Below are positions 33,479 through 38,700 of a stretch of DNA of 64,000 bases, piece after piece (within the stretch, counting starts at the first letter, position 1; the number at the start of each line of letters is the position of its first letter). This DNA comes from Candidatus Bathyarchaeota archaeon. GTDB lineage: Archaea; Thermoproteota; Bathyarchaeia; Bathyarchaeales; Bathycorpusculaceae. The notes beneath the pieces were generated by a model. The model did no database searches. It was not told where the DNA came from and was given only the letters and a program-made list of their open reading frames with translations. Both the position numbers and the translations under genes were made by a program. Location of the stretch: positions 128,001 to 192,000 of the forward strand of contig CAVTBV010000013.1 in assembly GCA_963733095.1 (NCBI GenBank), in the 5' to 3' direction.

Positions 33479-33760
33479 ATGGTTGGAGAAATAAACACAA
33501 TAATCGAATTAAACCCTGAATTGGCAAATTTAGCATATGAAATAGGTTTAAATCCATCTAAAATATGCGAAAGTGCCATAAAATTGGCAATACGGCGTCT
33601 AAAGGGCTTAAATGTTGAGAAATTGATGGTGGACGAGGCGGGATTTGAACCCGCGACCTCCACGATGCCAACGTGGCGATCATGCCAGACTGATCTACTC
33701 GCCCAAACTATCTGGCTTCTACATTCTAATTCGGCTCGTTTAATAAGCGTTTCTTATTGA
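33479..33760 (+). CDS. RHH/CcdA-like ORF running antisense through tRNA-Ala (possible Int(N)-type remnant of an integrated element)
   Basis: GGAGGT RBS; LANLAYEIGLNPSKICESAIKLAIRRL followed by tRNA-antisense-encoded MVDEAGFEPATSTMPTWR. Confidence 0.5.
   Translation: MVGEINTIIELNPELANLAYEIGLNPSKICESAIKLAIRRLKGLNVEKLMVDEAGFEPATSTMPTWRSCQTDLLAQTIWLLHSNSARLISVSY
33627..33704 (-). tRNA. tRNA-Ala(GGC), CCA encoded
   Basis: GGGCGAG/CTCGTCC acceptor with G3:U70, GATC D-stem, CCACG-TTGGCAT-CGTGG anticodon arm, GGTTCAAATCC T-arm, ACCA end. Confidence 0.97.
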
Positions 33761-34134
33761 GGGATTTCGTTTATTATTGGGGTTTCCAACGTTGGACTTT
33801 GGGGTTCATCGGGTTGCTGGCTAAACGGTGTGCCTCAGTAGCACTTGTTTTAGGGCGCCTCCAATAATTCTACTTCTAATCCACGATAATCCAAGTAGCT
33901 TTCCAAGAGTTCTTTATAGATCTTAACTCCAGAAATGATGCCAGATAACCTCAGTATCTCGCCTTGTCCAAGCCTGGTGTTTCCAGCCCCCCCAACGTGG
34001 CACAAAGCTTCTTTAATTCTTCTTCGATGCTGGGTAATTCTTTGGGGATTTCTAGTGTGGTAGAACACTCATGAAAGACAAGCCATCGAAGTACCGAAGG
34101 CACCTAAGACTTACCCTAAACCAGCAAATCACCT

Positions 34135-35178
34135 CTATCCATTTAAAGACTTAAGCTTTTTGGCATACCTCACCTCATCAACCGACTCATACGGCTCCTT
34201 TCTAGTCAACATAAACCAAATAATCTTTAGCATCTTATTCGCAACAGCAACCACCGCCTTCTGATCACCACGCCGCTTAGCAACACGCTCATAGAAAGCC
34301 TTCATCCTTGGATCAAACACAGACCCAACCCTAGCAGACTCAACCATAATCCACCTAAGCATAGTGCTGCCCTGCTTTGTAATATTGCCATGATATTCGA
34401 TATCGCCTGACTGATGCAAAGACGGTGCAAGTCCAGCCCAAGAAACAAGCTTCTTATAATCGCTAAACCGCTCAATACTGCCAATCTCTGACTTAATCAG
34501 CAAAGCACTATACACGTTAATTCCCTTCAAACTCAACAGTAGCCTAACGTCACTATCAAAAGAAGCCCTCGACGTAATCTCCGCATCCACACGCTCTATC
34601 TGCAAATCCAGGTTCTCCAAATGCATCAAATAGTTATCCAGCATCAACCGATCAAGCCCAGACAACTCCAAAGACTTCAACCACTGTATTCCCGCTTTGC
34701 CAAACAAATCACTAAATTCATGTTTGAGGCCATTTCGATCAATCAAAGCATGAGCCTTATTCTTCACCATCGTACGCAACTTAACAATTGATAATCGATG
34801 ACGTACTAAGCTTCGTATTTCTCTCATTTCTTTAGGCGGAACATAGCACTCTGGAATCAAATCAGTCCTCAAAAGATGCGCCAGAATCCTAGCATCAACC
34901 TTATCACTCTTAATTCTAGCTGAAGCTATCGCTTTAGTTCTCAACGGATTCGCCAACACCACAGGAATATGCAGCTCATCTAATTGATTGTATAGGTCCA
35001 GCCAATAAGGTCCAGTGGACTCCATTACAACCTTATCATCCATCGACAGCAGCAGAGTTAGGCTAGCTATTCCATCGGAATTGTTGTTGAAATCAAGCTC
35101 TTTTACGATTCTTCCTTGAGGGTTCATTATTGCTGCTCGGCACTTTTTCTTTCCAATATCTACTCCTACATACTTCAT
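34135..35178 (-). CDS. IS110 family DEDD recombinase/transposase (347 aa, intact)
   Basis: YVGVDIGK, VVMEST and KSDKVDA (DEDD), plus AGLAPSLHQSG (catalytic Ser) in the Tnp domain. Confidence 0.95.
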   Translation of the reverse strand: MKYVGVDIGKKKCRAAIMNPQGRIVKELDFNNNSDGIASLTLLLSMDDKVVMESTGPYWLDLYNQLDELHIPVVLANPLRTKAIASARIKSDKVDARILAHLLRTDLIPECYVPPKEMREIRSLVRHRLSIVKLRTMVKNKAHALIDRNGLKHEFSDLFGKAGIQWLKSLELSGLDRLMLDNYLMHLENLDLQIERVDAEITSRASFDSDVRLLLSLKGINVYSALLIKSEIGSIERFSDYKKLVSWAGLAPSLHQSGDIEYHGNITKQGSTMLRWIMVESARVGSVFDPRMKAFYERVAKRRGDQKAVVAVANKMLKIIWFMLTRKEPYESVDEVRYAKKLKSLNG

Positions 35179-35184
35179 TTCTAG

Positions 35185-35325
35185 TTTCCTGCTGGTTTCA
35201 GGCTGCATTCACTCATACGGGCGTTTGGCCCAGTTCTTTAGCAGCTCAGGATTCGCCCAGTCAACAACGCGGTCGCAAAGACCATGTTCTACCACGGGCT
35301 AACCAGCCAGTACAAGTTGGCAGAA
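35185..35325 (-). ncRNA. Predicted bridge RNA (5' hairpin, target-binding loop, donor-binding loop)
   Basis: GCCC-[GUGGUAGAACAU]-GGUC(UUUGC)GACC-[GCGUUGUUGACU]-GGGC and GCUGC-[UAAAGAACU]-GGGC(CAAAC)GCCC-[GUAUGAGUGAAU]-GCAGC. The loop strands match the flanks and element ends; transcript ends are estimated. Confidence 0.8.
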
Positions 35326-35700
35326 GTCTTTCATAAAGTCAACAACAATTGGAATTTTTTGGGTGTTGTTGTTCTTTCAGAAGTCCTATTTTTATGAGTT
35401 TTGGCGAACCGCTTCTTCAGTGTATTCTCCGTTAAAGCTGAAGGGTAAGACGCCAAGATCAGTGGTTCCATACTTGTACCAGTCTTGAAGTTTATGCTCG
35501 TCGTCTGCAGGCCATTGCTTCCCTTTTGGCATGTTTTTTGCCCCACAAATAATCCAACTATTGTGCCGCTTGTCATGTCTGAACCTGAGCTTTGTCCTAC
35601 TGATGCTTCGCCCAACTCTTTTTTCGGTGATTTGTGGTCCTAACTCTTTTTCTAATCTCTCTCAAAATTATTTGTTTTGTAGGTCAATTTACCGTTTAGC

Positions 35701-38700
35701 TCATTGGGGGGGCAAACGTATACTGAATTTTGTTCCTTTTCCTACTTGGCTTTCAAAAGCTACCGTGCCGCCTAAAGCTTCAGTCATACGCTTAATTACG
35801 GCTAAACCAAATCCCTGACCTTTAGCTTTAGTCGTGAACATTGGCGTGAATAATTTGTTTTTCACGCTTTCAGGTATGCCAACGCCTGTGTCTTCTACTG
35901 TTATGACCGAATCATGTTTTTTCTTGTCTCTGAAAGCATGTATCGTTAATTGGCCGCCTTCCGGCATTGCTTGAACCGCATTATTAACCAAATTGAACAT
36001 AATACGATTAATGAAACAAGAGTCAGCCATAATTTTCCTAGCATCAGTTTCCACTGCGACACTTATGCTAACATTCTCAGGCCAACCGTTCTTTGCTATC
36101 AACTCATCCACTACTAGCTTAAGGTCGGTTTCCTCAACTCGAGGGCTAAGTGGTCTGGCAAAATCTTGCAAATCCTGAACGATCTTGTTGATGTAAGTGA
36201 CGTTCTTTTCAATCTCGCTCAAACTTTCTAAAGTATTCTTTTTCTCTTCGCTCTCAGGCGTCAAAGCCAACTCTGCCTTGGCCAAATAGACATCGCTAGT
36301 TATAGCCTGTAAAGGGTTTCGAATATCATGACCAACCATCCCGGCAGTCGTTCCGATGGCGGCTAAACGTTCAGAATCTCTAAGCTGGATTGTTCGCTCT
36401 TCGACCAGCTTTTCTAAATTTCCACTATATTCTTTGAGCTTATCTTGTATTGCCTTGCGTTCGGTAATATCCATGAATAAAGACGCAAACATCCCTTTAT
36501 TTGGACTAAAAGAATAAACTTCGTAATATCGACGGGTGTTTTGGTTATAACTTTCAAAATGAGCGGGTTCACCAGTCAACGCGACATTACAATAAGCTTG
36601 GACCCAACTATCCTCAAGCCCGGGAAGAGCCTGTTTTATCGTTTTCCCCATCAGTTCAGTTAGCTTAAGACCTGTTTGCTTCTCAAAAGCATTATTTGCT
36701 TCAATTATGCGAAAATCAACAGGAATTCCTTTACTATCAAGGATTGGTTCACCTAAAAAGAAGGCTTCGTCCATATTAGCAAAAAGGGTACGATATCGCA
36801 GCTCGCTGTCACGCAGAGCCGATTCTATTTTTTTGCGTTCAGTATTGTCTGTGAAGGTTAAAACAGCGCCATCAATTCTTTTCTCTTCACTTAAATACGG
36901 ACGGATTCTAATTTCACATAGTCTGTCTCCACTGAGTGCAACTTCTCGATCGACAGCCTTTAGTTTAGTGATCGAATCCAGAATTGCGCCTTCTAAATCT
37001 GCACCCTGAACACCTATGTTTACTTTAGTTATTGGCTGCCCCACATCGGATGGAGAAATTTTCAAGTAACTTTGAGCAGAAGATGTAAACCGCCTAATCT
37101 TCAGGTCGTTATCTACAATAACCACTGGCAAATCAATATTTGTTTGCAGATTAGCTAAGTCATCATTTAGGCGTCCAAGCGCCAAATTTCGGTTCTTGAG
37201 CTCCTCATTAAGTGTCTGTAGTTCCTCGTTTCCAGACTGCAGCTCCTCTTTTGCCGTTTCCAACTCTTCATTGGTGCTCTGTAATTCTTCATTGCTGGAT
37301 TGCGCTTCCTCCATGGTTGATCGCAATTCTTCATTTGTTGCTTCTTGCACTTCAATAATGGTCTGCAAAGACTGCTTGGTTGACTCCAATTCCCCTTTAA
37401 GATCATTAATTTGTCCATCTTTGATGGACTTCTTTTCGCCAGGTATTTTTGTAGTTTCAGTTTCCTGAGATAAATTATAAAGTTGTATTGTGGGTTCTTG
37501 GAATGTTACAATGAAAAAGGGTTCTTCATAATCCGTTGTTTTCAAGGGTTTAACTTGGATAATTACGGTTTTCTGTTCCCCGTCGCTTTTGAACTGAATG
37601 GTTTCTTTTTGAGTTTTGTTTTCTTTTCTTGCTAAGTAAACTGAAGTTTGAACGTTGGTCCTCAATTCTTTGCGAACCATTTTTGTCACATTTAAGCTTG
37701 CGGTTCCTGATTCATGCCTTAGGTATGGGTTAACTTGTCCGCGGAAAAAAAGAATATCCAAATTATTACTTACAAGTAGAGTTGCGGGAACATACTCAGC
37801 CATTAATAGACGGTCGACATCTTCTTTGAGCGAAACCATAGAATTGGGCTTCTCAGATTGCTTTTCCAGTTTTTTTTGGAAACTGTAGGGAACAAATGTT
37901 TCTGGATGCGAAAAGGCCTGGGGCTGGGATCGTTTCTTTTTGTAGATTAAACCTTTGGTGGTGACTGGTTCGAATAGGTAACTGAATTTGCCTATGCTCT
38001 CCGATTCGCCTAAAACAAGAAAACCGTTAGACTTCAACCCATAATGAAAGATTGGAAAGACTCTTTCATGCAGCAAAGAATCAAAGTAAATCAAAACATT
38101 GCGGCACATTATCAGGTCTAGGTTGGAGAAGGGTGGATCGCTTGTTATGTCCTGCTTTGCGAATATGCACATGTCGCGGATTAGTTTGGTTATATGGTAG
38201 TTTCCATTTTGCATGCTAAAGAAACGTTTCAGTTTGCTCTCAGAAATATTTTCTTCTATGGTTTTGGGGTATATTCCTTGGCGAGCTTTGTCTATGTTTT
38301 TTTCATTTGCGTCAGTGCCAAAAATTTGAACCCGAATTTCGGGTTTGGCTTTTTCTTCTAAGAATTCCTGAACTGCTATAGCAATGGAGTAGACTTCTTC
38401 ACCCGTTGAACAACCTGGAACCCAAACTCTAATAGATTCATTAGCCACGCGGTTTTTGATCAGCTCGGGAAAGACTTTTTCTTCTAAAGCCTTGAAGGTT
38501 TTTGGTTCTCTAAAGAAACTTGTAACCCCTATGAGAAGGTCATCAAACAACGCAAGGATCTCGTTTGGGTGGGTTCGTAGAAATGCCACGTATTCTTTGT
38601 TGTTTTCTATTTTGTTTATTACCCTGCGTCGTGTGATACGCCGGTTTATAGTTGTTTCTTTATAGTGGGTAAAATCAACGCCGTATGAGGCCTTAAGCAT

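Follow-up and report, generated by a model that had tools for sequence, protein, structure and literature searches.

The window, the whole stretch of 64,000 nucleotides of a Candidatus Bathyarchaeota contig that was analysed, carries an insertion sequence on the minus strand. It encodes a recombinase of the IS110 superfamily and, ahead of the gene, a structured RNA that very probably acts as a bridge RNA. The main parts of the element are the following, with positions counted along the plus strand.

34068-35339, minus strand: insertion sequence, 1272 bp without the core copies; the ends come from an uninterrupted paralogous site, and the same ends recur in relatives
34066-34067: core dinucleotide beyond the 3' side of the recombinase gene, CA on the plus strand and TG in gene sense, from the paralogous site
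35340-35341: core dinucleotide on the RNA side, from the paralogous site and relatives
34071-34079: subterminal inverted repeat on the recombinase side, ATGAAAGAC on the plus strand, the reverse complement of 35326-35334
35326-35334: subterminal inverted repeat on the RNA side, GTCTTTCAT on the plus strand, pairing with the recombinase-side copy
34135-35178, minus strand: recombinase gene, 347 amino acids from the second ATG, placed by its Pfam domains and by where the alignments of relatives start
35188-35311, minus strand: predicted bridge RNA core, about 124 nt from outer stem to outer stem, 135.6 bits with a covariance model

The ends of the element are given by an insert-free copy of the site. 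Seventy-nine bases of the RNA-side flank recur elsewhere on the same contig without the insert, and this uninterrupted paralogous site (L002) reads ...TTGTTGTTG/TTCTAC..., the slash marking the place of the window's insert. Aligned with each other, the paralogue has ...ATTGTTGTTG/TTCTAC... and the window has ...ATTGTTGTTG, then the insert (ACTTTATG ... CATGAGTG), then TTCTACC.... Because the insert-free paralogue fixes the ends, the element spans 34068-35339 with a 2-bp core at both junctions. When joined, its ends read …CATGAG-TG-ACTTTATG…. In gene orientation, the element reaches beyond its subterminal inverted repeat by 7 bp on the left (TGACTTT, one core copy counted) and by 3 bp on the right (GAG). 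The repeat is perfect over 9 bp in the window and extends over 11-12 bp in relatives, both sides changing together. The element is present in one copy in its genome, and the sequencing runs compared contain no joint, neither an empty site nor a circle.

The site of insertion is a perfect 12-bp hairpin (35340-35375 together with 34062-34065), in which AGAACAACAACA and TGTTGTTGTTCT enclose a loop of 16-17 nt and the insertion lies in the 3' arm. The same hairpin is intact in the paralogous empty site (L002, about 1400-1700), and a similar palindrome is found near the insertion of another relative (L014). It looks like a REP-like repeat serving as target, as for IS621. A tRNA gene (33630-33704, minus strand, 61.9 bits) is located about 360 bp past the recombinase-side end, outside the element.

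The recombinase has both domains of IS110-superfamily recombinases, PF01548 (E 2.9e-28) and PF02371 (E 5.8e-21). The 347-aa protein aligns to the recombinases of ISCro4 (E 2.4e-17) and IS621 (E 8.9e-16), and the ISCro4 alignment places the D, E, D..D positions and the SG serine in register. The C-terminal motif GL-P----SG is present as AGLAPSLHQSG. Similarity to IS5075 (23%) is as distant as that to IS621. The listed open reading frame is longer (34135-35208, minus strand). Since its first ATG, at 35208, falls within the stem of the second RNA loop and the protein matches of relatives begin at residues 7-11 of the long frame, we place the start at the ATG at 35178, just past the outer stem of the RNA. 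RNA and coding sequence thus likely adjoin without overlap.

Related elements were found in a scan of species-representative genomes (28 loci, all in archaeal assemblies labelled Bathyarchaeia, Nitrososphaerota or similar), in 25 of 401 genomes of the phylum, and in a metagenome scan (80 loci, 60-90% protein identity). A covariance model built from the RNAs of 17 relatives identified the RNA in 27 of 40 sources and in 78 of the 80 metagenome loci, always upstream of the gene and on the same strand. At E<=0.01 the model found no RNA in the remaining 13 of the 40 sources, which hold relatives of 31-40% identity. The 105 related RNAs collected became 101 once identical rows were removed.

The RNA lies between the left end of the element and the recombinase gene, on the gene's strand. 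Its fold comprises an outer stem and two internal loops; a stem closes each loop, and within each lies an inner hairpin whose first pair is U.G. In the 17-sequence alignment 95.6% of 458 stem cells are standard pairs, versus 23-44% when the partner strand is slid, and five pairs have changed on both sides. The inner hairpins are rewritten in distant copies with pairing kept (UGGGC/GCCCU, UGUGC/GCACU, UGGCU/AGCCU, UGAGC/GCUCU). The structure rests on this comparison because the folding energy is no different from that of shuffled sequences (z -1.6 and -1.5). An Rfam scan of 33500-36000 at E<=1 returned one tRNA and chance matches, and no family for the RNA. Contigs from RNA libraries of relatives that are 91-96% identical (two studies) span the RNA region; DNA carry-over is possible, and we take them as a weak hint of transcription. 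A TATA-like TTTATG in the left end, about 26 nt upstream of the outer stem, is a putative promoter element.

The first of the two loops matches the host DNA on either side of the insertion through two strands.

35285-35295, minus strand: 5' strand of the target loop, left target guide GUGGUAGAACA, equal to plus strand 34057-34067, flank plus core, 11/11
35262-35268, minus strand: 3' strand of the target loop, right target guide GUUGUUG, reverse complement of plus strand 35340-35346, core plus flank, 7/7

In relatives a guide fits its own flank far better than the flanks of other loci. Among the first 26 distinct loci, the right target guide agrees on average with 6.48 of 7 positions of its own flank versus 3.29 in the flanks of other loci, and the left target guide with 7.35 of 9 versus 3.76; only about 1% of the cross pairs between a guide and a foreign flank reach top scores. 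The core part of the loop follows a TG or an AG core in 95 of 97 rows. Judged by these matches, the target loop is one of RNA-guided target choice, as in known systems. The AG core (in gene sense) marks a sub-lineage of about 20 loci (L014, L039, L118-L148) in which the core positions of both loops follow the change. On the top strand as defined by the RNA this core is CT, the same as that of IS621, whereas the core of the window element is CA.

The second loop occupies 35202-35245 and matches the ends of the element itself.

35202-35245, minus strand: whole putative donor-binding loop, from its stems and its matches to the element ends
35241-35245, minus strand: 5' half of the closing stem, GCUGC, pairing with 35202-35206, kept in 16 or 17 of 17 sequences
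35202-35206, minus strand: 3' half of the closing stem, GCAGC, pairing with 35241-35245
35240-35232, minus strand: loop segment UAAAGAACU
35236-35240, minus strand: 5' strand, left donor guide UAAAG, equal to plus strand 35334-35338, positions 2-6 of the other (RNA-side) end
35218-35232, minus strand: inner hairpin U-GGGC(CAAAC)GCCC-G, with GGGC at 35231-35228, CAAAC at 35227-35223 and GCCC at 35222-35219; its pairs are kept in the 17-sequence set
35218-35207, minus strand: loop segment GUAUGAGUGAAU
35210-35216, minus strand: 3' strand, right donor guide AUGAGUG, reverse complement of plus strand 34066-34072
35208-35209, minus strand: donor-loop handshake position AA; the flank of this copy would need UU

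An earlier note on this DNA, made from the sequence alone, had read the loop as GCUGC-UAAAGAACU-GGGC(CAAAC)GCCC-GUAUGAGUGAAU-GCAGC, and all of its strings and coordinates (35245-35202, minus strand) are correct. The inner hairpin appears as GGUC/GACC within the 17-sequence set and as UGUGC/GCACU or UGAGC/GCUCU in distant copies. AUGAGUG, which the note had paired with CACTCAT at 34066-34072 on the plus strand, fits at 7 of 7 positions and covers exactly the core and the first five bases of the element at its recombinase-side end. CACTCAT occurs six times in the window versus 6.45 expected, so that a 7-mer at chance frequency gains its weight from the exact placement at an independently defined junction and from the comparative data. 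The partial agreement that the note saw between UAAAG and TAAAG (35334-35338, plus strand) is likewise found: positions 2-6 of the end fit, and AAC (35235-35233), the next three bases, fits nothing. These bases vary freely in relatives (AAC, AAU, UAG and others). Inspected by eye, the eighth base of the 5' strand shows no consistent pairing, either with the target or with the base that opens the 3' strand.

Both strands of the second loop follow the element ends through the relatives. The 5-nt arm of the right donor guide agrees exactly with the element end in 85 of the 94 rows, which fall into three matched states (AUGAG/ATGAG in 79 rows, AUAGA in four and AUAGG in two). In six of the nine mismatched rows the supposed ends are unlike the end of the family and were probably misplaced by the pattern search, and the other three are RNA variants in degenerate copies. 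The core part of the donor loop follows the core in 86 of 93 rows (UG/TG 70, AG/AG 16). With wobble counted, 65 of 96 rows have all five bases of the left donor guide paired to positions 2-6 of the other end, versus a mean of 47.3 and a maximum of 56 in shuffles that ignore relatedness; with Watson-Crick pairs alone the full match is seen in 35 of the 96. Here too both sides change together (UAAAG/CTTTA, UAAGG/CCTTA, UAAAC/GTTTA, UGUGU/ACACA). Much of this agreement between RNA and ends reflects shared ancestry because donor ends and donor loop are highly conserved. The note had named covariation across homologues as one way to check its reading, and in the 101 distinct RNAs the loop bases do covary with the element ends.

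A protein-binding repeat could produce some of these observations. CACTCAT at 35210-35216 would then be a subterminal repeat bound by the recombinase as DNA, with no RNA guide; such a repeat would covary with the element end too, and the element does have subterminal inverted repeats at the DNA level. The match, however, sits in an internal loop whose stems keep pairing through sequence changes, and the other strand of that loop fits the other end in the reverse orientation. The sister loop fits host flanks that differ from one insertion to the next, which a protein-binding repeat cannot explain, and the recombinase has relatives whose structures were solved together with such RNAs. We regard a DNA repeat as highly improbable. 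The comparison supports the second loop as the donor-binding loop, and we conclude that a bridge RNA very probably has its donor-binding loop at 35202-35245 (minus strand), the RNA being encoded ahead of a DEDD/serine recombinase within an archaeal element of the IS1111 type, 1272 bp long.

Bridge RNAs and their recombinases are described for IS621 and ISCro4 of the IS110 group (Durrant 2024, PMC11208160; Hiraizumi 2024, PMC11208158; Hiraizumi 2026, PMC13626964), and the window element shares several traits with them. It has a two-loop RNA upstream of a DEDD/serine recombinase, a 2-bp core and inner hairpins that open with a U.G pair. As in IS621, the 5' strand of each loop matches one DNA strand on the approach to the core, which the left donor guide does not reach, and the 3' strand matches the other DNA strand from the core outwards. 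The host, in contrast, is archaeal, and the proteins are only distantly similar (E about 1e-16). We took the pairing geometry of IS621 from PMC11208158 and compared it with four real IS621 copies of E. coli W. There the 5' target guide AUCGGGCCU reads in the same sense as the flank adjoining the RNA, and the left donor guide ACAGUAUC in that of the far end. The window element differs: its 5' target guide corresponds to the flank past the 3' end of the recombinase gene, on the other strand. Its left donor guide is also shorter, comprising 5 nt that stop short of position 7 and the core, whereas that of IS621 is reported to pair through position 8 (PMC11208158). Subterminal inverted repeats span 9-12 bp in the archaeal elements versus 2-3 bp in IS621.

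The order of the guides relative to the gene, on which the earlier note was silent, is the reverse of that in IS621 and corresponds to the IS1111 type. The marks of the IS621-like IS110 group are absent from the window copy, whose guide order is reversed, whose core is TG in gene sense and whose repeat is 9 bp long. IS1111 elements and their seekRNAs are described with subterminal inverted repeats of usually 11-13 bp, beyond which the left end extends by 7 bp and the right end by 3 bp, and with the motif GL-P----SG (Siddiquee 2024, PMC11187229). The window element shares the near-perfect repeats (at 9 bp, shorter than usual), both extensions and the motif, as well as the recombinase length of about 347 aa and, in gene sense, a guide complementary to the top strand lying 5' of the match to the bottom strand. 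By its ends, repeats, motif and guide order, the element is therefore of the IS1111 type on sequence grounds. We had considered the reversed guide order as a novelty and dropped it, since it is already in print as a difference between IS1111 and IS110 (PMC11187229). In PMC13626964, IS1111 is named only among the references.

The position of the RNA departs from that of a typical IS1111 element. In the window copy and in 78 of 80 close relatives it lies upstream of the gene, an arrangement reported as a rare exception in IS1111, for example in ISMtsp17 (PMC11187229). Relatives from the same phylum with 38-40% protein identity (L062 in G173; L041/L061 in G257) resemble IS1111 in this respect and carry a two-hairpin RNA downstream of the recombinase gene. 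With filters off, L062 gave a single weak match to the covariance model (E 0.77) that on reading proved to be such a downstream RNA. In these RNAs the 3' donor strand is again equal to the element end (AUAGGUG/ATAGGTG; AUAGAUAUGU/ATAGATATGT). Because relatives at 38-40% identity carry the RNA downstream, we infer that the RNA module switched sides within the archaeal group.

The target loop also contains bases that match the donor.

35260-35261, minus strand: candidate target-loop handshake dinucleotide AC, pairing with T35339 and G35338 of the plus strand, the end of the donor's left arm

In IS621, two bases 3' of the core complement of each right guide pair with positions 7-6 of the other DNA (PMC11208158). 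In the window element ACU (35261-35259) sits right after the core complement of the 3' strand of the target loop. The earlier note had matched all three bases to AGT (35337-35339, plus strand) and likened them to the IS621 handshake. The complementarity is there, and it supports AC as the handshake; the U probably lies outside it. It is invariant in the 17-sequence alignment and is predicted to close the target-loop stem (G.U in 13 sequences, A.U in three, other in one), so that we count the handshake as 2 nt, AC, and regard the third base as probably belonging to the stem. The dinucleotide occupies the same place as in IS621, directly 3' of the core complement, and is complementary to donor positions 7-6, with A-C against T-G where IS621 has A-U against T-A.

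The target-loop dinucleotide covaries with the element end. Of 97 rows, 82 show full complementarity to the donor end, distributed over four matched states (AC 68, AU 7, AA 5, UC 2). Shuffles average 57.6 such rows, and none of 2000 reaches 82. The shuffles ignore relatedness, and independent changes of the handshake are therefore few, perhaps three or four. Complementarity fails in 15 of the 97 rows, for example in L013, L019 and L039.

AC(U) might instead be a conserved linker of the RNA scaffold, kept for protein contacts or folding and complementary to the donor without any role in strand exchange. AC easily outnumbers the other states (68 of 97) at a donor end that is itself conserved, and most of the agreement may thus reflect ancestry. 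The 15 mismatched rows point the same way, as does L039, in which the left donor guide tracked a change of the end (UAAAC/GTTTA) and the handshake did not, and so does the invariant U, which is predicted to belong to the stem. A linker does not, however, account for four matched states at a level that no shuffle attained, nor for a location that is exactly that of the IS621 handshake guide, where mutation alters recombination (PMC11208158; PMC13626964). The dinucleotide is also complementary to its own target in only 3 of 93 rows, the level of chance. We consider a mere linker unlikely and favor the handshake, in the place that IS621 uses, as the function of AC.

The corresponding position of the donor loop behaves differently. 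Unlike in IS621, AA in the window copy is not complementary to the target (0 of 2 bases), and its first A can pair with T35339 of the donor itself (T7). The donor-loop dinucleotide is variable in relatives. Thirteen of 93 rows show complementarity between it and the target, where shuffles average 6.8 and 16 of 2000 get as high as 13; full complementarity to its own donor is found in only 2 of 97 rows, where shuffles average 5.4. Among the 70 rows with an end that begins AC, not one has AC at this position. Our reading of these sequence counts is that the dinucleotide may be under selection against locking onto its own donor and under at most weak selection for pairing with the target. In IS621 the handshake pairs are reported to form after top-strand exchange, and cognate pairing blocks exchange (PMC11208158); the scarcity of cognate pairing in the donor loop fits this block.

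In the mechanism that we propose, the first loop would read the target, its 5' strand pairing with one flank and the core and its 3' strand with the core of the other strand and the other flank. The second loop would read the joined element ends with the same geometry, AUGAGUG pairing with the core and CTCAT and UAAAG with positions 2-6, and AAC would stay unpaired where the IS621 guide reaches position 7 and the first core base. As in the structures and assays of IS621, two recombinase dimers would hold the two loops. The serine would cut the top strands beside the core, and the strands would then be exchanged. The incoming donor strand would gain the AC pairs on the target loop, which by analogy with IS621 may favor the forward direction, insertion. 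In the window copy, insertion would gain two pairs on the target loop and lose one, A with T35339, on the donor loop, and this balance could give a modest bias towards insertion. In IS621 the configuration of the handshake bases shifts the balance between insertion and excision, and a role in directionality, the one that the earlier note had suggested for this element, has already been demonstrated there (PMC13626964).

The architecture could be right and the window copy nonetheless an inactive relic, its RNA neither made nor used any more. The element is single in its genome, RNA coverage comes from the RNA-library contigs of relatives alone, and the donor-loop handshake is not complementary to the target. 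Against decay, the reading frame is open with its catalytic residues in place, all four guides fit their DNA without a mismatch, and another assembly contains L004, which shares the donor loop and whose protein is 90% identical. A relic is possible but on balance doubtful.

Published work on IS621 already covers the mechanism, the handshake and the part that it plays in directionality, and work on IS1111 covers the reversed polarity. Some differences in detail from the known systems are seen in the short left donor guide, the one-sided handshake and the position of the RNA. We tentatively propose that the lineage (Bathyarchaeia and Nitrososphaerota, more than 100 loci) consists of IS1111-type elements in which a two-loop RNA moved from the 3' to the 5' side of the gene and the polarity of IS1111 was kept. 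Its handshake would be one-sided, the target loop alone being selected for pairing with the donor and the donor loop being selected only to avoid full pairing with its own donor, and its left donor guide would stay off the core. If this is true, the handshake is older than the split between IS110 and IS1111 and its two halves are not equivalent.

The data provide evidence from natural covariation for pairing of donor loop and handshake in an archaeal lineage of the IS1111 type. In the published work consulted, these features are dissected experimentally only in the bacterial IS621/ISCro4 group. The lineage opens no new mechanism; it offers compact archaeal orthologues, with a recombinase of 347 aa and an RNA of about 124 nt. 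Design rules for bridge recombinases could be informed by three traits: the left donor guide has 5 nt and leaves out the core, a conserved handshake matches the donor on the target loop alone, and the donor loop avoids cognate pairing.

Two features of distant copies were seen in passing. In L038/L059, L036/L058 and L041 the inner hairpins of target loop and donor loop share the same stem within one RNA (e.g., UGGGC…GCCCU twice), and the loops of the two hairpins are near-identical. This points to a duplication of the modules or to their changing in concert. In L036 (G020) the left end lacks its first 8 bp (AACACATG, itself ending in the core TG), as if an internal TG had served for recombination, and the flank nonetheless fits the target guide at 7 of 7 positions.
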